NCBI GenBank assembly: GCA_965220745.1
Contig: CBDCQT010000003.1
Span: 174,653 to 238,652, forward strand
Source of the DNA: Alphaproteobacteria bacterium
GTDB lineage: Bacteria; Pseudomonadota; Alphaproteobacteria; UBA828
Length of the DNA stretch: 64,000 nt
Direction of reading: 5' to 3'
Numbering within the stretch: position 1 is the stretch's first letter; every line of letters starts with the position of its first letter. A program made the translations under genes and the position numbers. The notes beneath the pieces were generated by a model. The model had not been told where the DNA came from. It saw only the letters and a program-made list of their open reading frames with translations, and searched no databases. Positions 7,228 to 41,001 of the stretch are shown here, one piece after another.

Positions 7228-7242
7228 GAAGCATGAAGAAGG
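7228..7242 (+). repeat. Core site GAAGCATGAAGAAGG followed by non-porin sequence (attL-like junction)
   Basis: Porin RBS and ATG present, but the frame ends after 27 codons (stop at 7316); homology to the porin loci ends exactly here. Confidence 0.85.
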
Positions 7243-7274
7243 AAGCGCGCTGTATGGGCAAGCGCTTCGTTCAT

Positions 7275-7399
7275 GCGACATTCCTACGCTTGACTACGAT
7301 TGGCTACGACAAGTAGCTGATTCTATACACTGATCGTTCATCCCTCCCCGTAGCTTCCGTATCGACTTCGCGACTCCTGTACGCAGGCGTACGCAGGGG
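7275..7399 (+). promoter_or_regulatory. Two arrays of ~10-bp periodic direct repeats upstream of the integrases
   Basis: GCGACATTCC-TACGCTTGAC-TACGATTGGC-TACGACAAGT (7275-7314) and GCGACTCCTG-TACGCAGGCG-TACGCAGGGG (7370-7399), then TTGACA at 7401. Confidence 0.7.
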
Positions 7400-7606
7400 T
7401 TTGACACCACTTGCTTGCGTGGCGCTTACGGGATCGTGTACCCTCTCCCGGCGTGGTCGAGGCGTTCGGCCACGCGGCGACGGCGGGATCGAGGTGCCGT
7501 GCGTATGTTGGCGCGGCCCAGATCATATGGGGTGCAACAGCCTCCCTGACCATCGCCATTTCATGATCGAACGCCCTCTCGCGGTGGTCAACGGGGTGGT
7601 GATTTT

Positions 7607-8797
7607 ATGTCACAGTACGGTGAGCGCACAATCTCAAAACGGACCGTCGATGCCCTTTCCGTCGAGGATCGGGACGCCATCTTCTGGGACCGGGACCTGT
7701 CCGGCTTCGGGGTGCGCGTCTACCCCTCCGGCCGCAAGGTCTACGTGGTGCAGAGCCGGGGTCCGGGGGGCTCCAGGCGGGTCACGCTGGGCCGGCACGG
7801 GAAGATCACCGCAGAGCAGGCGCGCAAGCGCGCCGCCGGGATCATCGACAGGATCAAGACCGGGCAGGAGCCGCTGCCGGTTGAGCCCAAGAAGGAGAAG
7901 GGGCCGACCGTAGCCGACCTTGCCGACCGCTTCATGCGCGCGCATGTGGCGGTGAACTGCAAGCCTGCGACGGCGGTGCGCTATGGCGGGCTGCTCAGGA
8001 ACTGCATCCTGCCCGTCCTGGGCTCCATGCCCATCGGCTCGGTCGAGCGCACGCACGTGGCGGACCTGCACTACGCGCTGCGTGACCGGCCGAGCTCGGC
8101 GAACAGGTCGGTCGACATTCTGAAGAAGATGTATTCCCTGGCCGAGGTGTGGGGCCTTCACCCGCAGGGGCGGAACCCGTGCCGGTCCGTGCGCAAGTAC
8201 AAGGAGCGCAAGCCACAGCGGTTCCTGAGCGCCGAGGAGTACCAGTGCCTGGGCCGGGTCCTGGACGAGATGGAGGCGGAGGGCACGGCCTGGCTCCCCG
8301 CGATTGCCGCGATTCGCCTGCTGATCCTGACCGGCTGCCGGCGCAACGAGATCCTGTCGCTGCGATGGGACGACGTCGACCGGTCCTCGGGCGAGTTGCG
8401 CCTGAGGGATGCGAAGACGGGCGGCAGGATGGTACCGCTGACGCCCACGGCGGCGGCGGTGCTGGACGCGATCCCGCGCATGCCGGGCAGTCCGTGGGTG
8501 ATCGCAGGGAAGCGGCCGGGGAAGCACCTGAGGAACGTCAACGAGCTCTGGTATCGCCTGCGGGTCCGGGCCGACCTGAAGGACGTGCGCCTCCATGACC
8601 TGCGTCATTCCTGGGCCAGCAGGGCGCTGGCGCTCGGCGAGAGCCTGCCGATGATCGGCAGGCAGCTGGGCCACACGCAGGTGCAGACGACGGCGCGCTA
8701 CGCGCACCTGGCACAGGACACGGAGAAGGTCTCTGCGGCCAGGGTGGCGGACAGCATCGAGGCCGACATCATGGTTCCGGACGCGGAGGCGGCATGA
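7607..8797 (+). CDS. Tyrosine recombinase/integrase with N-terminal arm-binding domain (Int1)
   Basis: WDRDLSGFGVRV arm domain; catalytic R (TGCRRNE), K (AKTG), HDLRH, LGH, Y (TARYAH). Confidence 0.95.
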   Translation: MSQYGERTISKRTVDALSVEDRDAIFWDRDLSGFGVRVYPSGRKVYVVQSRGPGGSRRVTLGRHGKITAEQARKRAAGIIDRIKTGQEPLPVEPKKEKGPTVADLADRFMRAHVAVNCKPATAVRYGGLLRNCILPVLGSMPIGSVERTHVADLHYALRDRPSSANRSVDILKKMYSLAEVWGLHPQGRNPCRSVRKYKERKPQRFLSAEEYQCLGRVLDEMEAEGTAWLPAIAAIRLLILTGCRRNEILSLRWDDVDRSSGELRLRDAKTGGRMVPLTPTAAAVLDAIPRMPGSPWVIAGKRPGKHLRNVNELWYRLRVRADLKDVRLHDLRHSWASRALALGESLPMIGRQLGHTQVQTTARYAHLAQDTEKVSAARVADSIEADIMVPDAEAA

Positions 8798-8836
8798 TGC
8801 GCGGGGGACCGGGTACAACCGAGGAGATCGCGCGCC

Positions 8837-10054
8837 ATGGCTAAGCTGCACTACAGGTCGATCTCGAAGCGCATGGTGGAGGCGCTGGAGGTGGACAGGG
8901 ACACGATCTTCTGGGACCGGGAGCTTTCGGGCTTCGGGGTGCGCGCCTATGCGTCTGGCAAGAAGGTGTACATCGTGCAGGCCCGCGCGAAGGGGAAGTC
9001 GCGGCGGGTCACGGTGGGCCGGCACGGGGTGCTGACGGCCGAGCAGGCGCGCCAGCGGGCGGCGCAGATGATCACGCGCATCAAGGCGGGGGAGGAGGTG
9101 AGCCCCAAGAGTCCCGAAGCGCCCAGGCCGGAGGGTCCGACGGTTGCAGAGCTGGCGGAGCGCTACCTGACGGAGCATGTGGCTGTCCGGTGCAAGCCGA
9201 GGACCGTGGAACTGTGCCGCCTGATGCTGAAGAACCACGTCCTTCCCGCGCTGGGCGACGTTCCCATCGAGGCCGTTGAGCGCAAGCAGGTGGCCGATCT
9301 TCACTTCCGCCTGCGCGACCGGCCGGCCACGGCGAACCACGTGGTTGCGGTTCTGTCGCGCATGTTCAATCGGGCGGAGGCGTGGGAGCTGGTGCCGGAG
9401 GGGACCAATCCGTGCCGCGCGTTTCCGAAGTACAAGACCCGCAAGCACGAGCGGTTTCTGACCGAGGAGGAGTTCCGGCGCCTTGGCCGCGTGCTGGCCG
9501 AGGCCGCCGACGAGGGCGGCGCGTCGAAGTACGCGGTGGCTGCGCTGCGCCTGCTGATGCTGACGGGGTGCCGTCGCAGCGAGATTCTGGGCCTGCGATG
9601 GGCCGACGTGGACCTGGAGGCGAAGGTGCTGCACCTCGCCGATTCGAAGACGGGTCCCAGGGCGGTGCCGCTGTCGCCTGCGGCGGCAAGGCTTCTGTCC
9701 GATCTGCCGCGCGTCACGGACAATCCCTGGGTGATTGTGGGCAAGAAGCGCGGCACGCACCTGCGCAACCTCAACCAGTCCTGGGACGTCATCCGCCGCC
9801 GCGCCGGTCTGGAGGACGTGCGGCTTCATGACCTGCGTCACAGCTGGGCCAGCAGGGCGCTTGCGCTGGGCGAGAGCCTGCCGATGATCGGCAGGCTGCT
9901 CGGTCACACGCAGGTCGAGACCACCGCGCGGTATGCGCACCTTGCGCGGGATTCCGTCAAGGAGTCGGCGGCCAAGGTCGCGGCCAGCATCGGGGAGGAC
10001 CTCTACAGGCACCGGGAGGCGGCTGGTGGTCATCTTCACCGGGCAGGCTCCTGA
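8837..10054 (+). CDS. Tyrosine recombinase/integrase, tandem paralogue (Int2)
   Basis: Same architecture; TGCRRSE, SKTG, HDLRH, LGH and TARYAH all intact. Confidence 0.95.
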   Translation: MAKLHYRSISKRMVEALEVDRDTIFWDRELSGFGVRAYASGKKVYIVQARAKGKSRRVTVGRHGVLTAEQARQRAAQMITRIKAGEEVSPKSPEAPRPEGPTVAELAERYLTEHVAVRCKPRTVELCRLMLKNHVLPALGDVPIEAVERKQVADLHFRLRDRPATANHVVAVLSRMFNRAEAWELVPEGTNPCRAFPKYKTRKHERFLTEEEFRRLGRVLAEAADEGGASKYAVAALRLLMLTGCRRSEILGLRWADVDLEAKVLHLADSKTGPRAVPLSPAAARLLSDLPRVTDNPWVIVGKKRGTHLRNLNQSWDVIRRRAGLEDVRLHDLRHSWASRALALGESLPMIGRLLGHTQVETTARYAHLARDSVKESAAKVAASIGEDLYRHREAAGGHLHRAGS

Positions 10055-10096: not shown

Positions 10097-11101
10097 ATGC
10101 ACTTCGTCGCTCTCGTCGCCGCGCTTCTGGCACTCCCGTCGTTGGCCTTCGCCGCCTGCGAGGGGCAGGACTGGCGTACCCAGCTTGCGCCGGAGACGAT
10201 GCAGGAGATTCGGGACAGCCTGGCGCACGTGCCGTTTCACCGGGGGATCGCGTTCGAGGCGGTCCGCGGCGAGAGCCGGCTCACCCTGTTCGGCACCGTC
10301 CACGTGTACGATCGAGGCGTCCATGTCCCGGACGATATCGCCGCGCGCATCCGCTCGGCCGACCTCGTTCTCGTGGAAGCGACGCCGGAGGTGATGGCGT
10401 CCTTCCGGCAGAGGCTGGCGGAGGACTACGCGCTGTCGTTCGATGTGTCCGGCCCTCGTCTCTGGAGCCGTCTCACGCCTCGGGAGTGGGCCGTCCTTCT
10501 CCGCGCCCTCCTGGCCCGGGGCATTGATGCCGAGGTGGCCGAGCGGATGCGGCCCTGGTTCGCCGCTGCCATGCTGGAGCAAGCCCCTTGCGACATTGCT
10601 GCCAGGGCGGAGGGCGGCAAGATCCTCGACGAGCGGGTCGAGGCGCTGGCGCGCGATGCGGGTGTGGCCGTGGGCGGCCTGGACGAGGATGCGGAGCGGC
10701 TTCTGACCTACTTCTCCGGTCTGCCGGAGGACGAGCAGCTCGATCTTCTGCGCCTGACGCTCGCGTCCCACGCGTCGGACGGCAGCCAGATCGTGACGCT
10801 GGTGCGCGGTTGGCAGGACGGCGAGGTGGCTCTTGCGTGGGAGGTTGCCAACGCCCGCGCTGCCGCGCTCACCGGGGACGGCGCGGCGGTTGAGGCGTGG
10901 TTCGCCCGGCTGCACGAGGTTCTCGTGGCGGCGCGCAATCGGGAGTGGATGCGGCGGCTTCTGGAGTTGAGCGGCGCGGTCCCGCATATCGTCGTAGCGG
11001 TCGGTGCGATGCATCTTCCTGGCGAGGACGGGCTTCTGCGTCTGCTCGAGCGGCGCGGCTTCGCGATCCGTACCCTGATCCTGGCGCCGCGAGACGGATG
11101 A
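10097..11101 (+). CDS. TraB/GumN (Tiki-like) family exported protein
   Basis: Signal peptide; LFGTVH, MRPW, RNREW, VAVGAMHLPGEDGLLRLL..RGF. Confidence 0.88.
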   Translation: MHFVALVAALLALPSLAFAACEGQDWRTQLAPETMQEIRDSLAHVPFHRGIAFEAVRGESRLTLFGTVHVYDRGVHVPDDIAARIRSADLVLVEATPEVMASFRQRLAEDYALSFDVSGPRLWSRLTPREWAVLLRALLARGIDAEVAERMRPWFAAAMLEQAPCDIAARAEGGKILDERVEALARDAGVAVGGLDEDAERLLTYFSGLPEDEQLDLLRLTLASHASDGSQIVTLVRGWQDGEVALAWEVANARAAALTGDGAAVEAWFARLHEVLVAARNREWMRRLLELSGAVPHIVVAVGAMHLPGEDGLLRLLERRGFAIRTLILAPRDG

Positions 11102-11461
11102 GGGTTCGACGGGCTTGCCCGGCATGAGCCGGGGACGCCGGAAACGGCGAGATGCTGCAGCTGTGACGGCCTCCGAATCACCGGCGGCCTTGCTCACCGT
11201 GTCCGGCGTGGTGGCCGCGTCGGTGGACCAGGACGCAGGCGGCACCCCCTCCCCGATCATGACGCCTCGCCGCTGGCTGCGCTGCTCGCGAGCGGCAAGG
11301 AGCGCGGCCATGTCGCCGGCACCGGTTTCGGCCGGGAACTCTCATTGACGCGCGGATACATCCACCGGATCGCGAGCGGAACCCTGCGGAGGTTGAAGCG
11401 CCCCTCGCGTGCTTCGCAGCCTCCGCGATCCCTGTGCTGTCCTCTCCACCCCGCATCGCCG

Positions 11462-11920
11462 TCAGCGCATGAAGCGGGCGCGGTTGCCCCGCCCCGCGCG
11501 GCGGCGCAGGGAGACGACGGCCGCCCACGCCGGCAGACTTCCAGCCGCCGCGCAGACGACCACCGCGAACGGCCCGAGCATGGCGGCCTGCGCGCACCCG
11601 GCGACAGTCAGTGGGGCCAGGACCGCCGCAAGCCACCATGCCGTTCCTGCGCGACCCCTGCGCCTCAGCGCAGCGACAGGCAGAGCCAGCAGCAGGCCCG
11701 CCGGCGCCAGCAGGACCAGGTCCGGCGATATGACCGGACCCAGCTGCTCGGGCTGCCCGCCGGCAGCGAGGAACGCGAGGCAACAGCCGGCCGGCAGCCA
11801 GACCAGACCCAGCGCCGCACCTGCCAGGCGTTGCCCGCGCTGTCCGCCCTTCATCCGGTGCCGGCCGTCGAACGGCCGCGGGGGATAGCGCACGTGCGTC
11901 AGCGAGATCGGCTCGGTCAT
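11462..11920 (-). CDS. Hypothetical membrane protein
   Basis: About four hydrophobic segments; start uncertain. Confidence 0.45.
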   Translation of the reverse strand: MTEPISLTHVRYPPRPFDGRHRMKGGQRGQRLAGAALGLVWLPAGCCLAFLAAGGQPEQLGPVISPDLVLLAPAGLLLALPVAALRRRGRAGTAWWLAAVLAPLTVAGCAQAAMLGPFAVVVCAAAGSLPAWAAVVSLRRRAGRGNRARFMR

Positions 11921-12057
11921 GAAAGTCGTCCGCGGCGGGATGGCGCGCAATAGGTCAGAACGGCGCCCGCACTGCAAGCCCGCAGGTCATGCCCGAGCCG
12001 GCCCTACTCCTCTCCTCCCCGCCGCCTCCTCGACGGGCCCCGGGTCCGCAGCCGGTC

Positions 12058-12170
12058 CCGCGCGGTTCAGCACACTCACGCGCAGGCACACGTCGCGGCC
12101 GCCATCGTCGGAGGCGACGAAGCCGAAGCCCTTGCCGGCGTCGTGGAACTTGACCACGCCGAGCAGCCCC
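12058..12170 (-). pseudogene. Cold-shock domain fragment
   Basis: Manual translation GVVKFHDAGKGFGFVASDDGGRDVCLRVSVLNRAG (RNP1 KGFGFV); no proper start, truncated. Confidence 0.7.
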
Positions 12171-12387
12171 TCTACCGGCGCTCCAGCCGTCTCTCTCCGC
12201 TGCCCGTGCCGGTCATCCGCCGTCCCGCGCGTTCACAATACCGTCAAGGGGGCAAAATCGCTTTCGCGCACCGCCGACGTTCAGCCACAATGACATGGGT
12301 TTCGCGCGGCGCGGCTGCCCGAAGAGGCGGCGCGAAGCCACGATCCCAGGAAACCGGCAACGCGCCTGCGAGGAGGACGTACCGAAG

Positions 12388-12612
12388 ATGATCAAGGAAA
12401 CTGTGGTCGCCGTGAGTATCGTCACCATGGCGGCCGGTGCCGCTCTTGCGCCGACGGCCGTATCCGCCGATGACGGGCGGATCGTCGTCGCGGACTCGCA
12501 TGATCCGTGCAACCCGTGCGCGGCATGCAACCCGTGCGCAGCAGACCCCTGCAACCCGTGTGCTGCGTGCAATCCGTGTTGCGCCGATCCCTGCAACCCT
12601 TGTGCCTGCTGA
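12388..12612 (+). CDS. Small exported Cys-rich CNPC-repeat protein (74 aa)
   Basis: AGGAGG at 12371, signal peptide, five CNPC units, 12 Cys in the C-terminal half. Confidence 0.8.
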   Translation: MIKETVVAVSIVTMAAGAALAPTAVSADDGRIVVADSHDPCNPCAACNPCAADPCNPCAACNPCCADPCNPCAC

Positions 12613-12641
12613 CGCGTCGCGCATTTCCGATCTTTTCCGGG

Positions 12642-12668
12642 GACGCCGCCTCAAGAGAGGCGGCGTTC
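12642..12668 (+). terminator. Hairpin downstream of the CNPC gene
   Basis: ACGCCGCCTC-AAGA-GAGGCGGCGT, short U tract. Confidence 0.5.
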
Positions 12669-12781
12669 TTACGTTGAGCCCCGCGCCTTTCGCCGCCATG
12701 GGGTCCGCACACCGGCGTGAGGGCTATGAGGGCGACTCGGAGACCGGCACTAAGGTGACGTTCTCGCCAAATCTCCACTCT

Positions 12782-12821
12782 CTTGACTGCATCTGCCCCC
12801 ACTTGACTGCATCTGCCCCCA
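12782..12821. repeat. 20-bp tandem repeat x2
   Basis: CTTGACTGCATCTGCCCCCA twice. Confidence 0.9.
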
Positions 12822-12914
12822 TAAGAGGGAGAGGCCGGCCGTGACGCGGGCGGCGGGGGCGGCGCTGCGAAGAGCGTTTCCCCCGCGGCGACCACGGACG
12901 AGGGGGAACGGACG

Positions 12915-13238
12915 ATGCGGACCGGCCGGATGTTCCATCGCGACGCGCAGACCTATCTGGTGCATTTGTTCGGCAGAGGCCTCGACGACGAGCGCTACGT
13001 GGTCGAGACGTACCGCTCGCGTCCCGACGGGCGGATCGAGCCCGTCGAGCCGGAGCAGTCCAGGACGAAAGGGCGACGCAGGCAACGACGCACGATCGCG
13101 AGCTTGGCCGCGGTGAAGAAAATGCGGCCCGAACGCGACCAGATCATCGTCTGCACGGGCGTCAAGCTGGCAGGCTCCGGGGTCCAGCTCTACGGATGGC
13201 AGGCGACGGGCCTGGTCGCCGCCCGCTACGCGCGCTGA
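12915..13238 (+). CDS. Hypothetical protein
   Basis: GAGGGGG RBS, protein-like composition, stop 15 bp before the next ORF. Confidence 0.65.
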   Translation: MRTGRMFHRDAQTYLVHLFGRGLDDERYVVETYRSRPDGRIEPVEPEQSRTKGRRRQRRTIASLAAVKKMRPERDQIIVCTGVKLAGSGVQLYGWQATGLVAARYAR

Positions 13239-13253
13239 CCGGGGTGGCCGGCC

Positions 13254-14063
13254 ATGCCGCTCAAGGACCCGGTGAATAAGCAGGCGCGGGATCGCCGCCT
13301 CCGCCAGCGCCACGCCGCTCGCCTCAAGAAGCGTTTGTGTACCCGGTGCGGCCGCGTTCCGCCCGAGCCCGGCCTCAAGGTATGTACCGACTGTGCGGAG
13401 AAGCGCCGCACCGCCGACCGCGCCCGCCGGGCGAAGGCGCGGGCCAAGGGTCTCCCCTACGCCGGCCGCGATCCGGAGCGCTGCCGCCGAGCCGACCGCG
13501 CCGGCGACAGGCGGCGGCGGAGGGCGTGGAAGGAGGCAGGGCTGTGTACATCCTGCGGCCGCCGCCGGCCGGAGGACAACCGCTCCGTCTGCGAGCCGTG
13601 CCGCAAGGCTCGGCGCGCACTCGACCGCCGGCGCTATGCTGCGCGAAAGGCCGCCGGTCGCTGCGTGCGCTGCACGCAGCCCACGGTCGGCGGTTTATCC
13701 AGATGCGGCCGGTGCTCGGCGCTGGCGGCGGAACGCGCGTCTCCCGAACGGGAGAGCGCCGTCAGCAGGAAACGATACGCCGCCCGCCGCGCGCAGGGCG
13801 CGTGTGTGGATTGTGGAGTTCCCGCCGGTGGCTCGGCCCGCTGTGAGCGCTGCGCATATCGGTCCAACTCCCGCGCGCCCGAGCGTCATCTCGTGTCGAT
13901 GTGGCCGCCGCAGATCACCGTGATCGAGTTGGAGACGGGCGAGGAGCTGGGCGTCTTCGAGACCGAGGCCGAGGCGGCCGCCTGCATCGTCTTCGCCGGG
14001 CTGCGGCCCGACCAGGTGGAAGTGCGGACCAACGTGCCCCTCCTCGCGATTTGCGCACGGTGA
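13254..14063 (+). CDS. Arg-rich protein with four CxxC...CxxC zinc-finger modules
   Basis: CTRC..CTDC, CTSC..CEPC, CVRC..CGRC, CVDC..CERC; acidic C-terminal domain. Confidence 0.75.
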   Translation: MPLKDPVNKQARDRRLRQRHAARLKKRLCTRCGRVPPEPGLKVCTDCAEKRRTADRARRAKARAKGLPYAGRDPERCRRADRAGDRRRRRAWKEAGLCTSCGRRRPEDNRSVCEPCRKARRALDRRRYAARKAAGRCVRCTQPTVGGLSRCGRCSALAAERASPERESAVSRKRYAARRAQGACVDCGVPAGGSARCERCAYRSNSRAPERHLVSMWPPQITVIELETGEELGVFETEAEAAACIVFAGLRPDQVEVRTNVPLLAICAR

Positions 14064-14258
14064 CCGTCCGCACGGTGACCGTCCACACCCCGCCAGGCAA
14101 GCACCGGCGGGGGGAAGGTGCCCAGGTCCGCCGGGACCTTCCGCAATCTGCGGCCGTCGGGGGCGTGCCGGCGGTCAAGGCGCTCTTGCGGACAAATCGC
14201 CTTGACGCAGGACGTGACGATCCATGAATGTACTATCTACTAGCGTGAGGGAAGAGCC

Positions 14259-14507
14259 ATGCGCACCGTCTCCCTGATGACCGCCAACCAGGAGTTCTCG
14301 AAGCTCGTCCGCGAGGTCGAGCGCGGAGAGGGCTTCCTGATCACCCGGCGGGGCCGGCCCGTCGCCAAGCTCGTGCCCCACAGCGCCGACAAGGACGCCG
14401 ATCCCGAGTGGGCGGCGGCCCATCGGCGCATGATGGCGCGGCTGAAGGAGGGAGCGTCGCTCGGCGGCCTCAGGATCGAACGGACCGCGCTTTATGACCG
14501 CGGTTAG
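14259..14507 (+). CDS. vapB: Phd/YefM-type antitoxin
   Basis: ANQEFSKLVREVERGE.FLITRRGRPVAKLVP; overlaps the PIN toxin gene. Confidence 0.9.
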   Translation: MRTVSLMTANQEFSKLVREVERGEGFLITRRGRPVAKLVPHSADKDADPEWAAAHRRMMARLKEGASLGGLRIERTALYDRG

Positions 14508-14955
14508 GGGGCGCTTCTCGCTGGATACCAACATTCTGGTCTATGCGGTCGACCGTGACGGCAGCGAGCGGCACTGGCTCTCCATGGAGTTGGTGGGGCG
14601 GGCGGCCCGGCGCGACTGCGTCCTGACGGTTCAGGCGCTGGCCGAGTTCTTTCATGCCACCACCCGGAAGGGCCTGCTCGAACCGTCCGAGGCCGGCCGG
14701 TTCGTGCGCGACTGGCTGGAGGTGTTCGAGGTCGCATCGGCCGACGGCGCGGCTCTCGCCGAGGCGATGGCAGCGGTGGACGAGCACCGGTTCTCGTTCT
14801 GGGACGCGATGCTTTGGGCGACCGCGAAGCGGGCGGGCTGCTCTGTCCTCGTGAGCGAAGACATGCAGCATGGACGCCGTCTCGGCGGTGTGGAGTTCGT
14901 CAACCCGTTTGCGCCCGACGGCCCCTCGGCGATGGCGACGATGTTCGATCTGTGA
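14494..14955 (+). CDS. vapC: PIN-domain toxin
   Basis: LDTNILVYA, QALAEF, SFWDAMLWATA, SEDMQHG, VNPF. Confidence 0.92.
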   Translation: MTAVRGRFSLDTNILVYAVDRDGSERHWLSMELVGRAARRDCVLTVQALAEFFHATTRKGLLEPSEAGRFVRDWLEVFEVASADGAALAEAMAAVDEHRFSFWDAMLWATAKRAGCSVLVSEDMQHGRRLGGVEFVNPFAPDGPSAMATMFDL

Positions 14956-15284
14956 GCTCCGCCGGCTAACCCGAGCTCTGCGCCTCCCGGCCCCGCAGGC
15001 CGTCCCGCCCCTGGCGCTCCCGCCGACGCGGCACCGAGCCGCCGCACCCCTCAAGCAAGGGCCGCATCCCGCTCTACCGATCCTCCTGGCGCCGTGCGTA
15101 GCGCCGCCATCGTGGCGGCCGGAAGTGCGGGCTGCGATGTCCTTGAGAACCCTGCAGGCCCCGGAGCAGGCCGCTGCCGGGAGGAGGAGAGGGACCTGGA
15201 GGAGGGTGAACGGAGGAGGTCACGAGAGAGATCGATCCGTTCGCCAACCTTCGTCATCAACTCGGAAGAACAGGAGACAAGACC

Positions 15285-15737: not shown

Positions 15738-15781
15738 GCCAAGACCCCGCAGCGGGCCTTCCCCGCCCGCTCGCCCCAGAG

Positions 15782-15819
15782 CCCGCCCCGCGTTCCTCCC
15801 GCGCGGGGCGGGTTTTTTT
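15782..15819 (+). terminator. Intrinsic terminator after ssb
   Basis: CCCGCCCCGCG...CGCGGGGCGGG followed by T7. Confidence 0.85.
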
Positions 15820-16022
15820 GCAGCCTGATCCGAGCCCCCCGCAGGTCGGACGGCGCGCCGTGCGCTTCACACGCCACCCCCCCGTCCCGGCGCCGGCGAG
15901 AGGTCGGTCGTGGCCGGGACCGGGGCGCGTCCAACGCAGCGTCCCGAGAGGTCTCTCATGCTCCCCATGACCGCCGACGGTCCCGGCTTCGCCGGTTCCG
16001 GCCTGATCCAGAAGTATGCGCC

Positions 16023-29441: not shown

Positions 29442-29460
29442 CCAAAGAGGAGTGGAGCAC

Positions 29461-31805: not shown

Positions 31806-34262
31806 TTGGAGAGCAAATTGGCTCGCCAGAACTCCGATAGCGACGAGGCCGCGCGCATTCGCGACCGCCTCGCTCGGCTCGATGCCGAACGCGATGCCCT
31901 GAAGGCACGGCTTGCCGAGCTCGAAGCCCAAGATCAAGGCGCGCCGAACGACAGCTCGAATTGTGAGCAGGTAACCGAGCGCTCGCCTGCGCGTGAGAAG
32001 GTCGCGCTGTTCCGATCGCTCTTCCGCGGCCGCGACGAGGTCTATCCCAAGCGCTGGGAGAACACCCGGACCCGAAAGTCGGGATACGCGCCCGCCTGCA
32101 GCAACGAGTGGAAACCGCAGGTATGCGGCAAGCCCAGGATCAAGTGCGGCTCATGCACCAACCAGGCCTTCCTTCCTGTCACCGACGAGGCGATGGTCGA
32201 CCACCTGCGCGGCCGCCACACGCTCGGTGTCTATCCCATGATGGCGGACAGCACGTGCCACTTCCTGGCCGCCGACTTCGACAAGGAGACATGGCGGAAA
32301 GATGCCGAAGCTTTTCTCGCCGTGTGCCGCTCGAAGGGCGTTCCGGCGGCCCTGGAGCGCTCGCGCTCGGGCAATGGTGGTCATGTCTGGATTTTCTTCG
32401 CCGAGGCCGTGCCCGCGATACTCGCCCGCCGCCTCGGCGCCCATCTTCTCACCGAAGCCATGGAGAACAACCCCGACATCGGCTTCAAGTCCTACGACCG
32501 GCTCTTTCCGAGCCAGGACACTCTGGCGGATGGTGGGTTTGGCAACCTCATCGCGCTACCCCTGCAGGGCGGCCCGCGCGAGAGCGGCAACAGCCTGTTT
32601 CTCGACGACGAGTTCGAGCCTTGTGCCGACCAGTGGGCCTTTCTGGCCACGGTTGGCCGCCTGAGCCTGGCGGAGGCCACGGCCATCGTCGACGAAGCCA
32701 GCAGGCAAGGCCGAGTCGTCGGCTTGCGCCTTCCGGTCGAAGAGGAAGACGAGAAGCCCTGGACGGCGCCGCCGTCGCGGCGGCGGTCTCCGCCGGCAAT
32801 CTCCGGCACGCTCCCCGAGCGGATCGACGCGGTTCTGGGTGACCAGCTCTACGTGCCGCGCGAGGGCCTGCCGCCGGGTCTGGTCAACCGGCTCGTCCGC
32901 CTCGCAGCATTCCAGAACCCGGAATTCTATCGTGCACAGGCGATGAAGCGCTCCACCTTCGGCATCTCCCGCATCGTCGCCAGCGCCGAACTCCTGTCCC
33001 ACCACATCGCCCTGCCGCGCGGCTGCCGCGCGGCGATGGAGCAGTTGCTCGACGAACTCGACATCGCCTGTCATGTGCGCGACGAACGCAACGTCGGCCG
33101 GCCTCTCGATATCGCCTTTCTCGGCGAGTTGATCCCGGAGCAGCAGGCGGCGGCCGAGGCCCTGCTGGCACACGAGACCGGCGTGCTGGCGGCAGCGACG
33201 GGGTTCGGCAAGACGGTGGTCGCCGCCTCCGTGATTGCCGCGCGCAAGGTGAACACGCTCATTCTGGTTCACCGCAACCAGCTGATGGATCAGTGGGTCG
33301 CGCGGCTGGGGGCGTTCCTGGATCTTCCGAAAGGCGCGATAGGACGTATCGGCGGAGGCAATCGAAAGCCGGGCGGCATCGCCGATGTGGGCACGTTGCA
33401 GAGCCTTGAGCGCGACAACGTGGTGGACGACGTCGTGGCCGACTACGGACATCTGGTGGTCGACGAGTGCCACCATCTCTCGGCGACCAAGTTCGAGATG
33501 GTAGCGCGGCGTGCCAAGGCCCGTTACGTCCTCGGGCTGTCGGCGACGGTCACGCGCCGGGACGGTCATCATCCCATCGTCTTCATGCAGTGCGGCCCGG
33601 TGCGGTACCGGGCGAGCGCCAAGGCGGAGGCGCGCCGCCACCCGTTCAGGCATCGGGCGATCCTGCGTCCGACTTCGTTCAGGTTGCCCGGCAACGACGA
33701 CGAAGATCGTCCGCCGATCCAGAACATTTACGCCGCGCTGGCCGACGATGAAGCTCGCAACGCGCTGATTTTCGACGATGTGCTGACGGCGCTGGAAGCG
33801 GGCCGCTCACCGATCCTTCTGACCGAGCGCAAGGACCACGCCGACCGCTTTGCGGAGAGGCTCGGCCGTTTCGCCCGCAACGTGATCCTTCTGCGCGGAG
33901 GCATGGGGGCGAAGCAGCGCCGTGAGGTCATGCAGCGTCTCGAAGATGTACCCGATCACGAGGAGCGTGTTCTCGTCGCGACTGGCCGCTATATCGGTGA
34001 GGGGTTCGACGACGCCCGCCTCGATACGCTGTTCCTGACCATGCCGATATCGTGGAGGGGGACACTCGCTCAGTATGTCGGTCGCCTGCACCGCAATCAT
34101 CCGGAGAAGCGCGAGGTGCTGGTCTACGACTACCTCGACGACGCCGTGCCGGCGCTTCGGCGCATGGCAGCAAAGCGCGTTCGCGGATACGAGAACCTCG
34201 GCTACACGGTCGAGACGCCCGATGCGCTGAGCATCAAGCGAGACTCTTCGGGCGATGCATAG
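31806..34262 (+). CDS. AEP-primase-like domain + SF2 (ResIII-like) helicase, TOTE-type architecture
   Basis: FLAADFD, ERSRSGNGGHVWIFF, GNLIALPLQ; AATGFGKT, DECHH, LSAT, GEGFD, QYVGRLHR. Confidence 0.88.
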   Translation: MESKLARQNSDSDEAARIRDRLARLDAERDALKARLAELEAQDQGAPNDSSNCEQVTERSPAREKVALFRSLFRGRDEVYPKRWENTRTRKSGYAPACSNEWKPQVCGKPRIKCGSCTNQAFLPVTDEAMVDHLRGRHTLGVYPMMADSTCHFLAADFDKETWRKDAEAFLAVCRSKGVPAALERSRSGNGGHVWIFFAEAVPAILARRLGAHLLTEAMENNPDIGFKSYDRLFPSQDTLADGGFGNLIALPLQGGPRESGNSLFLDDEFEPCADQWAFLATVGRLSLAEATAIVDEASRQGRVVGLRLPVEEEDEKPWTAPPSRRRSPPAISGTLPERIDAVLGDQLYVPREGLPPGLVNRLVRLAAFQNPEFYRAQAMKRSTFGISRIVASAELLSHHIALPRGCRAAMEQLLDELDIACHVRDERNVGRPLDIAFLGELIPEQQAAAEALLAHETGVLAAATGFGKTVVAASVIAARKVNTLILVHRNQLMDQWVARLGAFLDLPKGAIGRIGGGNRKPGGIADVGTLQSLERDNVVDDVVADYGHLVVDECHHLSATKFEMVARRAKARYVLGLSATVTRRDGHHPIVFMQCGPVRYRASAKAEARRHPFRHRAILRPTSFRLPGNDDEDRPPIQNIYAALADDEARNALIFDDVLTALEAGRSPILLTERKDHADRFAERLGRFARNVILLRGGMGAKQRREVMQRLEDVPDHEERVLVATGRYIGEGFDDARLDTLFLTMPISWRGTLAQYVGRLHRNHPEKREVLVYDYLDDAVPALRRMAAKRVRGYENLGYTVETPDALSIKRDSSGDA

Positions 34263-35011
34263 CGGAGGAGGAGGCGTCGCCGCGATCAACGGCCGACAAT
34301 GTCGCGCCTTGCATCCGGCTCATCGCCCGCGGCGCGTTCTTCGGCATGCGCCACCGTGGTGAAAGCCGAGTTGATCGCCTGTTTAGGTCCGCTCCGGATC
34401 GATCCAAACGCCTCTCCACGTTCGCTATCGGTTTCAGGGGATCCGCCATACCGCCGAATTCGGCTTGGCCACCATCACCGCCTTCATGACGATGTCATCG
34501 TACGCGCCGTCGAACCTGGTGTGATCGTCGTGACCAGCGTTGTTCCAGAACATTCCGTGCGAGCCGTGCCTGACGCGTACGTGGGCGTACGTCGTAAAGG
34601 CCCTCGATCGCTACGAGAGCGACATGTCGACCAGGCTGTTCGTGTGGGACCAATTTCCGGGCGCCTACCCCACACTCCTCGGCAACATCGCGGTGAGTCG
34701 GGCCCGCGTGATCCTGAAATTCATGGAAGACGCGGGCCAGACTTTCGCCCAGGCCCACAACGCGCTGAACATGCTGGGGCCAGAGACATGGTAGACCTGA
34801 GCATGTGCACAAGGGGGGCTATGGCTGACAAGATGACCGTCGGACGGTTCATCCTCCTCCCGCTGGGTTTGGCGATCGCGTGCGCGGTCCTGGCGGTGAT
34901 CATGCTTCAATTTGTTCAGCTATGAGGATGCGGAGCCAACGGGGCTGGGCGGCGCCGTGTGGGACGGGAGCTATCTTTGCGCCTTCAGTTCCCGAACCAG
35001 GGCTCGCACTA

Positions 35012-36065
35012 GAGCATTTTTCGATCTTAGAGAATCTTTAGAATTTTCAATCGCTTGGATTTGTGATTCAAGATGCAGGCTGGTGAAGGAGGCCAGCCTG
35101 CATGACACGACCTCTTTCGAATGATCTGCGTCGCCGGGTGGTGACGGCGGTGGTAGACGGCGGCATGACCCGCCGGGGCGCGGCAAGGCGCTTCGGGATT
35201 GCGCCGTCGACGGCGATCAAGTGGGTCGATGCCTGGCGCCGCACGGGGAGCTATCGCCCCAGAGCGCAAGGCGGCGACAGGCGCTCGCGGCGGATCGAGG
35301 CCCATGCTGAGGTGGTGCTTGCGCTGGTCGACGAGACCCCAGACATGACGCTGGCGGAGATCGCCACCCATCTGGAAGACGAGCACGGTCTGCGGGTCTC
35401 CCAGAGTACCGTGTGGCGCTTCTTCCACCGCCGCGGCATCACCTTCAAAAAAACGGCGCACGCCAGCGAGCAGCAGCGCCCTGACGTGCTCAGGCGCAGG
35501 CGCGCCTGGGTCGACACCCAACCCGATCTCGACCCTGAGAAGCTCGTCTTCGTCGATGAAACAGGCGCTTCCACCAAGATGGCGCGACGATGCGGCCGGG
35601 CTCCTCGCGGACATCGCTGCCGCGCGCCTGTACCCCATGGGCACTGGAAGACCACAACCTTCGTCGGCGCCTTGAGGCTGAGCGGAATGACCGCACCCAT
35701 GGTGCTCGACGGTGCCATGCACGGGGCCGCTTTCTTCGCCTACGTCGAACAGGTGCTGGTGCCCGCGCTCGAGCCCGGCGACATCGTGGTGATGGACAAC
35801 CTTGCCTGCCACCGCAGCGCCGCCGTGCGCGACGCCATCCAAAGCGCCGGGGCCGAGTTGCGCTTCCTGCCGCCATACAGTCCCGACTTCAACCCGATCG
35901 AAATGGCCTTCTCCAAGCTCAAGGCCTCCCTCAAACGACGCGCCGCCCGCTCCGTCAACGAACTCTGGGAGGCCATCGGCGAGGCCACAGACACCTTCAC
36001 ACCCGCTGAGTGCCAAAACTACTTCGCTGCTGCGGGATATGACTACGTGTGATCGGATAGCGCTC
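35012..36065 (+). mobile_element. IS630-family element
   Basis: Imperfect IR TAGAGCATTTTTCGATC / GATCGGATAGCGCTCTA with flanking TA. Confidence 0.88.
35102..36052 (+). CDS. IS630 transposase (single frame through the A7 run)
   Basis: FVDET, VMDNL..H, LPPYSPDFNPIE. Confidence 0.95.
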   Translation: MTRPLSNDLRRRVVTAVVDGGMTRRGAARRFGIAPSTAIKWVDAWRRTGSYRPRAQGGDRRSRRIEAHAEVVLALVDETPDMTLAEIATHLEDEHGLRVSQSTVWRFFHRRGITFKKTAHASEQQRPDVLRRRRAWVDTQPDLDPEKLVFVDETGASTKMARRCGRAPRGHRCRAPVPHGHWKTTTFVGALRLSGMTAPMVLDGAMHGAAFFAYVEQVLVPALEPGDIVVMDNLACHRSAAVRDAIQSAGAELRFLPPYSPDFNPIEMAFSKLKASLKRRAARSVNELWEAIGEATDTFTPAECQNYFAAAGYDYV

Positions 36066-36068
36066 TAG

Positions 36069-37500
36069 TACTACAGTTTCGTTTTACTGCTCTGTATGGC
36101 TCTCTGGGCCGAACGGCTGCGGAGAGGTGGATCGATGAGCGTGGCGGATTGGTCGGGCTCGCTTCTGGAATGGGAGCGCGAGCTGGGGTTGTGGAAGCTG
36201 CGTCTGGGCCCGGTATTCGGGCGTCGTGAGGTGCGCGAGACGGGGAGCGCGTTTTTGGACGGCCTGCTGTCGGGGATCGCGCGCAAGACGGGCTGGATGA
36301 TGGCGGAACAGGCGGGGCTGTCCCGGCCGTGGCGGATGCAGGCGCTTCTGGGCCGCAGCCGCTGGGATGCCGAGGCGCTGCGGGACGAGGTCCGAGCCTA
36401 TGCGCTCGAGGCGCTGGGCTGCCCGGACGGCGTGCTGGTGGTCGATGAGACGGGCTTCGTGAAGAAGGGCCGGCATTCGGTCGGTGTTGCCCGCCAGTAT
36501 TCGGGGACGGCGGGTCGTGTCGAGAACAGCCAGGTCGGTGTCTTTCTTGCCTACGCGGGCCATCTTGGGCAGGCGCTGATCGACCGCCGGCTTTATCTGC
36601 CGCGCGCGTGGGCCGAGGACGGCGCACGTCGGGCCAAGACGCAGGTGCCCGACGAGATCGTCTTTGCGACCAAGCCGGCGCTCGCCCGCGCGATGATTGC
36701 TGCGGCGCTCGATGCGGACCTGCCCTGCGCCTTCGTTCTCGCCGACGCGGTCTATGGCTCAGATACCCGGCTGCGGCGCATGCTGGAAGAGCGAGGACAG
36801 AGCTATGTGCTGGCGGTGCGCAGCAACCACACTCTGCGCTTTGTCACCCCGTCCGGGCTGATCGAGACCGATCCCGCGACCATGGCCGATGATCTGGACG
36901 ACGGGGCCTGGGCGGCCCATGCCGCCGGCGAGGGCAGCAAGGGCCCAAGGCTCTACGACTGGGCTCGCATCGCCCTGGGCCGGCCCTGCGACGAAGGGCC
37001 GGAACGATGGTTGCTCATCCGCCGTTCCCGCAACGATCCGAACAAGCGGGCCTACTCTCTCGTCTTCTGCCCCCAAGACACCACGCTCGCCGAACTCGCC
37101 GGTGTCGCAGGCCTGCGATGGACCATCGAGGAGTGCTTCCAGAGAGCCAAGGACGACCTCGGCCTCGACCATTGCGAGGCCCGCTCCTGGCACGGTTGGC
37201 ATCGCCACATCAGTCTCGTCATGGCCGCGGCCGCCTTCCTCGCCAAACTCGCTGCCGAGCTGCGAAGCGCCGCATCCGGCAAAGAGAACGAAACGAGTCC
37301 CAACCCGCCAATCGCCGCCTGATGCTCCTCGCCGCCCTCGTGCCTTCGGTCCCCGAAATCCAAACCCTTCTCGCTCGCTTGATATTCAAACCGTCGCAAA
37401 GAGCTTCCGACATCATCCAGTGGTCTCTATGGCGACGGCAACACCAAGCCTCAGCGGCTGTCTCTCACTACAAGAAACGAACATAAACGCAACTGTAGTA
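36069..37500 (+). mobile_element. IS701-family element A
   Basis: IR TACTACAGTT(T/G)CGTTT; TSD CTAG at 36065-36068 and 37501-37504. Confidence 0.93.
36135..37322 (+). CDS. IS701 transposase
   Basis: VVDETGF.KKG, VARQYSGTAG, ADAVYG, RWTIEECF, EARSWHGWHRH. Confidence 0.95.
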   Translation: MSVADWSGSLLEWERELGLWKLRLGPVFGRREVRETGSAFLDGLLSGIARKTGWMMAEQAGLSRPWRMQALLGRSRWDAEALRDEVRAYALEALGCPDGVLVVDETGFVKKGRHSVGVARQYSGTAGRVENSQVGVFLAYAGHLGQALIDRRLYLPRAWAEDGARRAKTQVPDEIVFATKPALARAMIAAALDADLPCAFVLADAVYGSDTRLRRMLEERGQSYVLAVRSNHTLRFVTPSGLIETDPATMADDLDDGAWAAHAAGEGSKGPRLYDWARIALGRPCDEGPERWLLIRRSRNDPNKRAYSLVFCPQDTTLAELAGVAGLRWTIEECFQRAKDDLGLDHCEARSWHGWHRHISLVMAAAAFLAKLAAELRSAASGKENETSPNPPIAA

Positions 37501-37523: not shown

Positions 37524-38399
37524 TTACTTACTGCGCAGCGCAGCATCGCGCTCGTTCGTACCTTTGTGGCCGGAGGGCAGGTAGCCGAAGCGCTCCATTT
37601 GGGCGCGGTGACGCTCCACCACGCGGCGGACCTGCGCGTCGTCCAGCACCTCCCGCCAGCCGCCCTCCTTGCCGGCACGGAAGAAGCGCTCCTGCGACGG
37701 GGTGCGCTCGATAAAGCCGGTGCGGTCCTCCTGCGCGCGCAGTGAGCGGAAGGACGAGTACCGCATCGCCCGCTCCAGGCGCTCGCGCGGCGGCTTGAGG
37801 CCGAGGAAGGCCGAAATGGCGCGAAAAGTCGGGCCGGGCCGGCGGCTCATGTCTTCGTAGCGCACGACGTGGAGCTGCGGATGCGAGCTGGCGGTCCAGC
37901 TCTCGACATGGGTGGACCAGTCGCTGTGGTGCTCGGGCACTTGGTCCGCCGACGCGGGAGAATGGAATCCCCTTGTCTCCATGAGCGTGATGACGTCGTC
38001 CGTCGGCTGGCCCAGGTGGTGGGCGTATGAGACGACCACGTCGAGCGGGTTGCGCACGACGTAGATCGCCCCTGCCGTGAGCGACTGGGTAATCATAGGC
38101 ACGCCGTCGACTTCGACGAGGGCGTTGTGGGTCTTGACCATGACGGTATCGGGCGCGCTCTCGGCGATGAGTGCGTGCACCCTGGGCCTGAGGCGCGCAA
38201 GATCCTCCCCGCCCAGCGCCGCCGGCGATCGGGAATCGAACCGCTCGTACCAGTGCGCTTGGCTGTCGCCCGCTGTCAACTCGGACATTCGGTTGATGTC
38301 AAAGGGCGCGCGCGAATTCCGCAGCAGGTTATGCAGAAAGGCGCGTAGCCACGTGTTGCCCGACTTGGGGTAGGAGGCGAGCCACAGGATACCGCTCAT
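37524..38399 (-). CDS. PAPS-dependent sulfotransferase (copy 2)
   Basis: Near-identical to copy 1; SYPKSGNTW. Confidence 0.92.
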   Translation of the reverse strand: MSGILWLASYPKSGNTWLRAFLHNLLRNSRAPFDINRMSELTAGDSQAHWYERFDSRSPAALGGEDLARLRPRVHALIAESAPDTVMVKTHNALVEVDGVPMITQSLTAGAIYVVRNPLDVVVSYAHHLGQPTDDVITLMETRGFHSPASADQVPEHHSDWSTHVESWTASSHPQLHVVRYEDMSRRPGPTFRAISAFLGLKPPRERLERAMRYSSFRSLRAQEDRTGFIERTPSQERFFRAGKEGGWREVLDDAQVRRVVERHRAQMERFGYLPSGHKGTNERDAALRSK

Positions 38400-38444
38400 A
38401 TGCAAATTGCCAGTGGCCACCCCTCGGAAACAAGCTTAAGTAGA

Positions 38445-38466: not shown

Positions 38467-38495
38467 CCAAAGCCATAGACGACGATGTTCCACGC

Positions 38496-39488
38496 CTAGA
38501 AGTTGAGCATCGTCCCCAGAAGGATCTGAGTGAAGTCGTCCATGCCCTTCTCGCCCGCGCCGATCTGCAGCCCGAGATCGACTCCCGCTCCGAGATTGTA
38601 GTTGGCATTGAAGGTTACGATGCTGCTGTTCTCGGACTCGCTATCACCATACTGAACGCCCAGCATCATGGGGCCGTCGGTCCAGGACACGCCGACATCG
38701 GAATGCGAGTTCGATACTCCGCCGATTTCCTGATCGTACACGGCACCGCCGAGCGCGATCTGGTCGATGCTGATCGAGGCCCCGTAGCGCAAGCCCGAGG
38801 GATCTTCACCGCCGCCCTCGTTCGTGTAGCCCTCGTAGCCGACATTGGTGCTGAAGCTACCGCCCATGACGTCGACCGAGTAGCTAAGGGCGACAGATAC
38901 CCCCTCCGAGTTCTGCCCCGCTTCGTCATTGGTCCTTCCAGCATAGGAGTCTGTCGAATTCTCAGGCGCGTAGCTCGCCGCAAGGGAAAGGCCGTTGAAG
39001 TTCGGCGAGAAGTAGACAACCTTGAGCGCATCCTCGTTCATGATGTCGTTCGTCGTCCACATGCCGTCAATTCCTTGGAACCACGGCGACTTGATACCAC
39101 CGATCGGCACGGTCCCTCCCGGCGCCCAGATAACCGTCTGCTGCGCGGCGCCTTCGATTGCGCCGACATGAAAGGAGCCGAAGCCGCCCTTGAAATAGAC
39201 TTCCTGCTCATCGCTGTGTTCGTAATCGTTCGCGGTGAAGCGGACGCGCACACCAGAGGTAATGCCGTTGTCCAGCGTGGTCTCTGCTCTGAGCTGCATC
39301 TCCATGTTCTGGTTGATGCCGTGGCCACGATCATTGACACCGTCCTGGTCGTAGCCGATGGCGGCGATCGTGTAGTAGCCGCCCACGCCGACTTCCATCG
39401 GCACCATCATGTCCTGAGCCTGCGCCGCACCAGCCGCGAAAGCACCAGCGGCTACGAGCGCCGTAGTTCCCAAAAGGAGTCGCTTCAT
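38496..39488 (-). CDS. Porin 2 (preceded by GAGGAG RBS; predicted expressed copy)
   Basis: Paralogue of porin 1; upstream AACAGAGGAGACAGAAGC-ATG. Confidence 0.9.
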   Translation of the reverse strand: MKRLLLGTTALVAAGAFAAGAAQAQDMMVPMEVGVGGYYTIAAIGYDQDGVNDRGHGINQNMEMQLRAETTLDNGITSGVRVRFTANDYEHSDEQEVYFKGGFGSFHVGAIEGAAQQTVIWAPGGTVPIGGIKSPWFQGIDGMWTTNDIMNEDALKVVYFSPNFNGLSLAASYAPENSTDSYAGRTNDEAGQNSEGVSVALSYSVDVMGGSFSTNVGYEGYTNEGGGEDPSGLRYGASISIDQIALGGAVYDQEIGGVSNSHSDVGVSWTDGPMMLGVQYGDSESENSSIVTFNANYNLGAGVDLGLQIGAGEKGMDDFTQILLGTMLNF

Positions 39489-39493
39489 GCTTC

Positions 39494-39985
39494 TGTCTCC
39501 TCTGTTTTCATTGGTCCAAAGCCTCTGGGTCTCATACCGCCCGTGCTCGGACCGGTCCCAACCCACTGGAGCCGGAGAATGAGGCAACCGACCCCCCTCG
39601 CGCAACCGAATTTATGACCGAATTCTAACGGTCGGTCGTTTTCCATGAGCACTGTGGCCAAAATGCCACGACACCCCCTCTCCGCCATGCCACGCACGTC
39701 AATCAGGCCCGCCGGCACCGACCCGATCCCGCTCTCCCGCCTCGTCCCGGACCGGCCCGAGTCGCCGCCGTCGAGAGCGTGCGACTCGACCCCGAGAGGG
39801 GCGATCCCGCCGTCGACATGTAGGGTTTGAGCGACAGGAATACGCAGGACTACGCTTACGTTGTAATCAATCCGCTTCCTGAGCGCTTACGGAAATTCTC
39901 GGGCGCTCAGCGCCAGCGCGTCAGGACCTCATAATTACCCCATCATAACAGCGGAGTACAGAATCACCTCCAAAATTGCGCTCGC
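39494..39985. promoter_or_regulatory. 492-bp putative invertible promoter/RBS segment, copy 2 (intact)
   Basis: Flanked by 124-bp inverted repeats (39370-39493/39986-40109, 3 mismatches seen) starting with the core; contains array GCGACAGGAA-TACGCAGGAC-TACGCTTACG at 39831-39860. Confidence 0.75.
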
Positions 39986-39990
39986 GAAGC

Positions 39991-41001
39991 ATGAAGCGAC
40001 TCCTTTTGGGAACGACGGCGCTCGTAGCCGCTGGTGCTTTCGCGGCCGGTGCGGCGCAGGCTCAGGACATGATGGTGCCGATGGAAGTCGGCGTGGGTGG
40101 CTACTACACCACCGCTCTTGTCGCCAAAGACGTGGACGGTGCCGCGGATGATCGCGGCCACGTCATCCGGCAGAACATGGAGATGCAGTTCAGGGCAGAG
40201 GGGACGCTGGACAACGCCATTACAGCTGGCGTCAGGGTTCGCTTCACCGCCAACGACTACGAACACAGCGACGAGCAGGAAGTCTATTTCAAAGGAGGTT
40301 TCGGCTCCTTGCACATCGGCGCAATCGAGGGCGCCGCGCAGCAGACGGTCATATGGGCACCAGGCTCAAGTGTGCCTATCGGCGGCATCAAGTCGCCCTG
40401 GTTCGGCGGCATCGGCGGCATGTGGAATACGGGCCCGGGAACTGGTGTTGCCATCATGAACGAGGATGCGATCAAGGTCCTCTACTTCTCGCCGAACTTC
40501 AACGGCCTCTCCCTTGCCGCGAGCTACGCGCCTGAGGATACGACAGACTCCTATGGCGGAACGAGCACTGCCGACCCGGGGCAGAACTCGGAACAGGTCT
40601 CTGCCGCCCTCAGCTACACGGTCGACGTCATGGGCGGCAGCTTCAGCGCCAATGTCGGCTACGAGGGCTACACGAACGAGAGCGGTGGTGAGGATCCCGA
40701 GGGCTTGCGTTACGGGGCCTCGATCAGCATCGACCAGATCGCGCTAGGCGGTGCCGTGTACGACAAAGATGTTGGCGGCGTCGCGACGTCGCATTCCGAT
40801 ATCGGCGTGTCCTGGACCGACGGTCCCCTGATGCTGGGCGTTCAGTACGGCGACAACGAGGGTACCGACAGCAACATCGTGGCCTTCAATGCCAACTACA
40901 ATCTCGGACCGGGAATCGATGTCGGGATGCAGATCGGCTCGGGCGAGAGTGGCGCGGACGACTTCACTCAGTTCCTGCTCGGGACCATGTTCAACTTCTA
41001 G
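39991..41001 (+). CDS. Porin 3 (no Shine-Dalgarno upstream)
   Basis: Paralogue; first 40 aa identical to porin 2. Confidence 0.9.
   Translation: MKRLLLGTTALVAAGAFAAGAAQAQDMMVPMEVGVGGYYTTALVAKDVDGAADDRGHVIRQNMEMQFRAEGTLDNAITAGVRVRFTANDYEHSDEQEVYFKGGFGSLHIGAIEGAAQQTVIWAPGSSVPIGGIKSPWFGGIGGMWNTGPGTGVAIMNEDAIKVLYFSPNFNGLSLAASYAPEDTTDSYGGTSTADPGQNSEQVSAALSYTVDVMGGSFSANVGYEGYTNESGGEDPEGLRYGASISIDQIALGGAVYDKDVGGVATSHSDIGVSWTDGPLMLGVQYGDNEGTDSNIVAFNANYNLGPGIDVGMQIGSGESGADDFTQFLLGTMFNF

Follow-up and report, generated by a model that had tools for sequence, protein, structure and literature searches.

A probable integrase-driven porin switch on an integrative mobilisable element of a sponge-associated alphaproteobacterium

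The last 64 kb of contig C3 (CBDCQT010000003.1) in the 4.8-Mb, 13-contig genome assembly of an alphaproteobacterium of the UBA828 lineage, hereafter the window (64,000 nucleotides, GC 65.5%), carry three intact Porin_4 genes, with a sulfotransferase gene behind each of them, and two adjacent genes for paralogous tyrosine integrases, int1 and int2 (Table 1). At four identical 11-base sites, GAAGCATGAAG, the porin genes and the region upstream of the integrases are joined to one of two mutually unrelated non-coding arms, A and B. Recombination at these sites most likely moves one ribosome-binding leader, B, among the three alternative porin genes, and we consider it probable that the locus is a multi-site, integrase-driven porin switch residing on an integrative mobilisable element, with the four junctions as the recombination sites of int1 and int2. 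The genome of the window (G000) was compared with those of its genus, a set of 21 species genomes (G000–G020) to which the counts below refer.

Junctions and arms

Within the window GAAGCATGAAG has exactly four copies, and those at the porin junctions contain the porin ATG. With up to one mismatch the window again holds four matches, compared with 0.94 expected, and 0 of 100 shuffles reach four; the junctions at 3121, 7228, 39493 and 39986, singled out in an initial annotation of the window, are real, and its proposal that they behave as recombination sites of the adjacent integrases is supported. Genome-wide there are eight exact copies, the four outside the window having unrelated flanks. 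To the left of the core stands A or B, to the right a porin or the arm X (7239–7606), which has no relation to the porin genes, and homology between junctions changes sharply at the 11 bp. As had been noted earlier, the junctions at 3121 and 7228 share a 15-bp identity, GAAGCATGAAGAAGG, and at both of them (J1 and J2) homology on either side stops within 15 bp, while the cores at 7228 and 39986 are in direct orientation, 32,758 bp apart. The 5' ends of the alternative porin genes thus carry inverted sites of the recombination type, with integrases nearby. On inspection by eye, GAAGC recurs directly among the half-sites of the core, with no clear inverted pair, and the likely overlap within the core is the 7-bp CATGAAG, which would include the porin ATG.

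The B copy at 6876–7238 (363 nt) is 99% complementary to 39483–39845, and the A copy at 3073–3275 (203 nt) is 94% complementary to 39832–40034. A terminates in ...AAAATTGCGCTCGC and B in ...AACAGAGGAGACA; a GAGGAG-type Shine-Dalgarno sequence precedes the ATG only on B and on a third leader, B2, found in a related genome, A being devoid of one. Because it is joined to B, porin 2 is the predicted expressed (ON) copy; porins 1 and 3, on A, are predicted to be OFF, and the second copy of B points into the integrase genes. The three porins are 77–82% identical, with the differences arranged in blocks; porins 2 and 3 have identical first 33 residues and then diverge, porin 3 having a 5-residue insert.

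The motif families GCGCTTACGG, ACGCTTACG/CTACGCTT and TACGCAGG are present in both A and X and sit in blocks invariant over six A copies and seven X arms; CGCTTACGGA is unchanged in 6/6 aligned A copies and GCTTACGG in 7/7 aligned X arms. A and X also share 18 7-mers, compared with 6.7 ± 3.3 in mononucleotide shuffles (1/300 reaches 18), and A and B share 5, compared with 6.4 in shuffles; since the control pair X–porin 2 likewise exceeds its own shuffles (39 vs 22 7-mers, 2/300), this test is weak and suggestive at most, and conservation is the better support for the putative A/X motifs. The initial annotation had reported repeat arrays on A and X and none on B; the motif families common to A and X agree with the first part of this statement, and B, from which these motifs are absent, does contain direct repeats of other 7-mers.

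Long blocks of the A/B segment are invariant across five species, in which the adjoining porins drop to 30–50% amino acid (aa) identity. Blocks invariant in five species within B (6882–7227, 39494–39845) include CGGACCGGTCCCAACCCAC and ACTGTG.CC.AAATGCCAC; B may act as a structured leader or contain several regulator sites. The left and right loci carry the same ~490-bp A/B segment once the insertion sequence (IS) that splits the left copy, an IS66-family element with an 8-bp target duplication (TCCTGTCG), is removed. This region, 3276–6881, was considered as a recombinase acting in a trio and rejected, as it consists of the IS66-family IS plus a DruA-like gene. In three species (window 3276–6881, G005:C4/C3 and G011:C3) an IS66-family element with a DruA-like second gene occupies one and the same octamer of the A/B segment, the target duplication in G005 being CCTTGTCG compared with TCCTGTCG in G000; the terminal repeats differ from copy to copy, which speaks for a site preference on insertion and against common descent.

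Table 1. Features of the window, in order of position
Feature	Position	Strand	Description
Outer-membrane beta-barrel (OMP) gene	31..882	-	PF13505, 1.5e-17; syntenic with G008, G020 and G013; conserved chromosomal flank
Sulfotransferase 1	1041..1907	-	PF00685, 2.5e-29; downstream of porin 1; 96% complementary to 41109-41997
Porin 1, 332 aa	2118..3116	-	PF13609, 5e-35; porin in host position; joined to arm A, without Shine-Dalgarno
Core J1 (A-core-porin 1)	3111..3121	-	exact GAAGCATGAAG
Arm A, copy 1	3122..3275	-	conserved motifs ACGCTTACG / GCGCTTACGG / TACGCAGG
IS66-family insertion sequence, 3,606 bp	3276..6881	+	146-nt terminal inverted repeats; splits the left A/B segment
IS66-family IS genes	3524-5923; 5875-6801		799-aa transposase; DruA-like gene
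Arm B, copy 1	6882..7227	+	GAGGAG Shine-Dalgarno in a conserved leader that at present faces the integrases
Core J2 (B-core-X)	7228..7238	+	exact GAAGCATGAAG
Arm X	7239..7606	+	conserved, non-coding, upstream of int1; tandem GTACGCAGG and TTGCTTGCGTGGCGCTTACGG
int1	7607..8797	+	P4/lambda-type tyrosine integrase; PF00589, PF13356, PF14659
int2	8837..10054	+	paralogue, 61% identical to int1; PF00589, PF13356, PF14659
Mobilisable-element backbone	10097..27332	.	TraB/gumN-like, Phd/PIN, SSB, Toprim-DUF7146, YspA, NikA-like, TrwC relaxase, HTH_17 gene
TrwC relaxase	22233-25358	-	PF08751, 2e-82
HTH_17 Xis/AlpA-like gene	27066-27332	-
Cargo and insertion sequences	28332..37322	.	DruA-like, YhgA-like, AEP-TOTE primase-helicase, IS630-type transposase, DDE_5 transposase
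Sulfotransferase 2	37524..38420	-
Porin 2, 330 aa	38496..39488	-	the element's own porin; joined to arm B
Core J3 (B-core-porin 2)	39483..39493	-	exact GAAGCATGAAG
Uninterrupted two-faced A/B segment	39494..39985	.	B' 39494-39845, A 39832-39985; inverted cores at both sides
Core J4 (A-core-porin 3)	39986..39996	+	exact GAAGCATGAAG
Porin 3, 336 aa	39991..41001	+	joined to arm A
Sulfotransferase 3	41070..41975	+
Second, related element backbone, inverted	55082..62830	+	Xis, 497-aa gene, TrwC, 482-aa gene; runs past the contig end

Empty sites, occupied sites and inversions in related genomes

An empty form of the site is present in G008, where the OMP gene, sulfotransferase, porin 1, core and B2 flank follow one another, all reading from B2 towards the OMP gene. 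B2, which has its own Shine-Dalgarno sequence, is the native leader of this host porin, to which porin 1 of the window is 96% identical in aa sequence. G020 has both G008 flanks (left, 83% identity over 5.9 kb; right, 87% over 9.4 kb), separated by a 68.3-kb insert that is bounded by direct cores and ordered B', A, core and a porin reading away from it, then the backbone, then int2, int1 and X, with X and the integrases reading in the opposite direction. The comparison of the two genomes implies that the element family inserts between the native leader of the porin and its ATG, and that the insertion brings the A/B segment and a porin with it. Positions 7228–39996 of the window have the same layout as the G020 unit (X, integrases, backbone, a sulfotransferase–porin 2–core series reading away from the core, A/B segment), and taking them as the element unit, as the initial annotation did, is sensible.

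Direct cores at both ends, together with an empty site in a relative, are therefore found for the element family, with G008 empty and G020 occupied. The right flank of G008 was not found in G000, so that G000's own copy has no empty-site relative and the comparison does not define its outer attachment site. Parts of the earlier attachment-site scheme have to be replaced. A and B lie inside the G020 insert as one invertible ~490-bp segment, from which it follows that the core at 39493 is internal to the element and not a spare bacterial attachment site (attB), and the host leader is B2, so B is not the bacterial arm of attB.

Orthologues of int1 and int2 (89–97% identity), with the X arm and core upstream, occur in five further genomes (G011, G005, G015, G020 and G001); a related-locus search with int1 alone gave two loci. 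Both orientations of the segment exist across the related genomes. A porin-2 orthologue occupies the same element end in G005, on A there and on B in G000; the OMP-proximal porin is on A in G000 and G013 and on B in G020 and G005; and the orientation of the X-to-porin block in G000, G001 and G011:C2 is opposite to that in G020 and G005. Such differences between species require recombination between cores. The core itself evolves in concert, being uniform within a genome and variable between genomes: position 5 is C in 4/4 sites of G000, G in 2/2 of G013 and T in 3/3 of G005, the last including the X junction, whose flanks are unrelated to those of the other sites. Judged by this concerted variation, the overlap that is exchanged would be about 7 bp long, [C/G/T]ATGAAG.

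The mobile element and its surroundings

Both integrases have an arm-binding, a SAM-like and a catalytic domain and, when aligned to XerD, keep the catalytic R, HxxR, H and Y (TGCRR, HDLRHS, GH, ARYAH); with an R, K, HxxR, H, Y catalytic domain and an N-terminal arm-binding domain they are of the P4/lambda type. Among the 27 open reading frames scanned in 7.6–37.3 kb, 8 of which are without any Pfam family, there is no type IV secretion system family. By its predicted gene content, with the integrases at one end, a TrwC relaxase, a NikA-like protein and no mating-pair family found, 7228–39996 is an integrative mobilisable element, and G005 keeps its gene order over about 55 kb. The product of 27066–27332, on which the initial annotation had proposed that recombination might depend, is an HTH_17 protein of the AlpA/Xis type. 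The cargo at 28332–34262 (DruA-like, YhgA-like nuclease/transposase, AEP-TOTE primase-helicase) looks defence-related.

Porin 3 borders a second, inverted, related element, whose backbone (window 55082–62830) is 91% identical to 28348–20592 and which has, within 42000–64000, two YhgA-like copies and an AEP-TOTE gene fragment. It appears to continue on contig C9, with an integrase pair only 54–57% identical to int1. Genes like int1 and tandem pairs of P4-type integrases are very numerous throughout the genus (21/21 genomes have many int1-like genes), with 29 matches and about a dozen adjacent pairs in G000 and 90 matches in G011. On contig C8 of G000 a 1,119-bp perfect inverted repeat (about 4848–5966 and 11153–12272) brackets another integrase pair and could be one more invertible block, or else a product of the assembly. 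A transfer RNA (tRNA) as integration target was dropped: the only tRNA call in the window (ARAGORN, tRNA-Ala(CGC), 5526–5611) falls within the gene for the IS transposase and is probably spurious. Kin of the organism, which is a sponge-associated bacterium, occur in sponge metagenome runs with shares of 0.2–0.33 (one run compared).

Proposed mechanism and alternative explanations

In the proposed switch, GAAGCATGAAG would be the core exchanged in int1/int2 recombination. An element unit extends from arm X and the integrases through the relaxase-bearing backbone to its own sulfotransferase–porin cassette and the ~490-bp two-faced segment, of which face B has the conserved leader with a strong Shine-Dalgarno sequence and face A has integrase-arm-like motifs and no Shine-Dalgarno. 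Recombination between cores could take three forms, a flip of the small segment, a flip of the whole block from X to porin 2, and excision or integration, and each of them would allot B to the porin genes anew. Both rearrangements put forward by the initial annotation, an inversion of 4.1 kb and a deletion of 32,758 bp, are formally possible, and each would place the Shine-Dalgarno-bearing B before a porin that now has none. The present layout may stem from two tandem units and one inversion between the two B-bearing sites. We infer that int1 and int2 catalyse the exchanges at the cores; B would be the sole effective promoter and ribosome-binding site, and switching presumably persists in this strain.

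Several observations weigh against this model. An A-core-X junction, which the initial annotation had equated with the attachment site of the excised form (attP), occurs in 0/21 genus genomes at up to 3 mismatches, and a 21-mer of core plus X has no match in metagenome contigs and one in genome contigs, namely the known B-core-X junction of G015; since assemblies rarely hold circles, the absence of an excised circle or attP junction is weak evidence. All seven X junctions examined (7/7) carry a leader-type arm, B or B2, so the state may be fixed and not switching, and the X-junction core is mutated in G020, G006 and G011:C2, where these sites look frozen; the small-segment cores of G020 are intact despite its mutated X-junction core, and the pattern in the three looks like a decay of mobility with the small switch kept. 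Homologous recombination could also flip the A/B segment, because porins 2 and 3 hardly differ over their first ~100 nt, and the two 363-nt B copies at 99% identity would permit a RecA-dependent inversion of the 32-kb block. A simple promoter scan and an Rfam search of 39300–40200 gave no sigma-70 consensus promoter and no Rfam family, so that it is the Shine-Dalgarno sequence and the conservation of B that suggest a promoter there. Finally, contigs of four public runs (X18, X21, X22 and X1), which are mixed and strain-rich, were mapped to window 1–20000 at 92% likeness, and among the 15 of 80 joints listed there was none at 3121 or 7228, nor did an alternative junction appear among the rows listed; the joints listed near the sites have short sides of 19–35 letters, and this result is no evidence either way on flipping or excision in this strain.

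If the locus were a fossil record, one or two elements would have inserted at a porin start, followed by a single later inversion between B copies, with porin expression now fixed and no switching. The lack of an alternative junction in any assembly and of A-core-X in particular (0/21), the constant presence of B or B2 at X junctions (7/7), the degenerate cores of G020, G006 and G011:C2, a region littered with IS and other transposases, and a layout that would be derivable from a tandem element pair by one inversion all fit such a history. We nevertheless regard it as rather unlikely, given that in G000 the four cores match one another at all 11 bp and the B copies are 99% identical, that the small-segment cores remain intact and vary together within a genome despite the decay of some X junctions, that segment orientation differs repeatedly between species, and that conservation is far higher in the non-coding A/B segment than in the neighbouring porins.

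Homologous recombination or gene conversion among paralogous porin loci, comparable to RecA-dependent inversion of surface-protein genes, could produce a mosaic with no involvement of the integrases, and the inverted repeats needed for it are at hand (183 nt and 85% where porins 2 and 3 begin, 363 nt and 99% in the two B copies), as are the 33 initial residues common to porins 2 and 3. It is quite improbable: at J1 and J2 homology stops within 15 bp on both sides, X is unrelated to any porin, the G005 X junction has the T variant of the core though both of its flanks are unrelated to the other sites, and in G020 the two porins on either side of the segment have starts that resemble each other no further than the core. 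A misjoining of the repeats A and B in the 13-contig assembly might be suspected in a repeat-rich window that stops at a contig end, yet it is scarcely credible when the same junction types are found in the independent genomes G015, G001, G011, G020 and G005 and a 1,557-nt run contig (X21 record 19) bridges porin 1, core, A and the IS without differences.

Returning to the integrase-driven switch, a more far-reaching version, which is possible and which we hold only tentatively as a whole, is that the element family uses the major porin locus of its host as insertion site and as control circuit at once. Insertion between the host leader and the ATG would let the host porin promoter read into the integrase genes and would silence the host porin, a replacement porin–sulfotransferase operon would be supplied, and the portable, flippable leader would alternate element and host porins. 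The geometry of left and right attachment sites (attL/attR) converted to attB/attP, together with the Xis-like factor, would amount to a directional, heritable memory that couples the element's state with the type of cell surface. In genomes with a decayed X junction, the small segment together with the integrases would then be a domesticated phase-variation system.

Relation to known systems and significance

In the vpma/Xer1 system of Mycoplasma agalactiae, inversions move a unique promoter before alternative surface-protein genes, at sites just upstream of the gene starts and with a tyrosine recombinase encoded beside the locus (PMC2268961). The porin locus resembles this system, as well as M. 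bovis vsp and M. pulmonis vsa/HvsR, in having a nearby tyrosine recombinase and, on the proposed model, a leader moved among alternative surface genes. Unlike vpma, it has sites that span the start codon and, as its recombinases, two arm-binding integrases of the P4/lambda type; it belongs as a whole to a mobilisable element integrating at the same site, and its genes code for Gram-negative porins, each accompanied by a sulfotransferase. Its logic follows that of the vpma/vsp/vsa systems and, to judge from its mention in PMC4196234, of the multiple site-specific inversion model for Omp1 of Dichelobacter nodosus.

With lambda/P4 integrase systems and MOBF integrative mobilisable elements the locus has in common the integrase domain set, an HTH_17 Xis-like gene, a TrwC relaxase, cores in direct repeat at its two ends and a relative in which the site is empty. 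It differs from lambda/P4-type elements in having two paralogous integrases and not one, in targeting a porin start codon and not a tRNA, and in ending in an invertible leader segment with further internal cores. Adjacent paralogous tyrosine recombinases, FimB and FimE, with a directional bias, are also found beside the invertible promoter segment of the Escherichia coli fim switch, which has two sites and one operon and is not mobile. The sites of the D. nodosus Omp1 study by Moses et al. of 1995 reportedly resemble those of Din-family serine invertases, and to our knowledge no mobile element, paired integrases or arm sites have been described for that model. Porin switching by the paired integrases of a mobile element was not found in the literature searched, which is not proof of none. 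What would be new here is the use of paired arm-binding integrases, of sites spanning the start codon, and of a switch that doubles as the attachment system of a mobilisable element.

Porins are the main nutrient gate and a common phage receptor. If the proposed switch is real, a transferable element with an alternative porin and a movable leader would spread phase-variable surface identity horizontally, and the locus would be a natural case of a paralogous lambda-type integrase pair performing multi-site inversion and not integration alone. Such a system would be relevant to the evolutionary route from mobile elements to phase variation and, as a natural equivalent, to engineered integrase memory devices.

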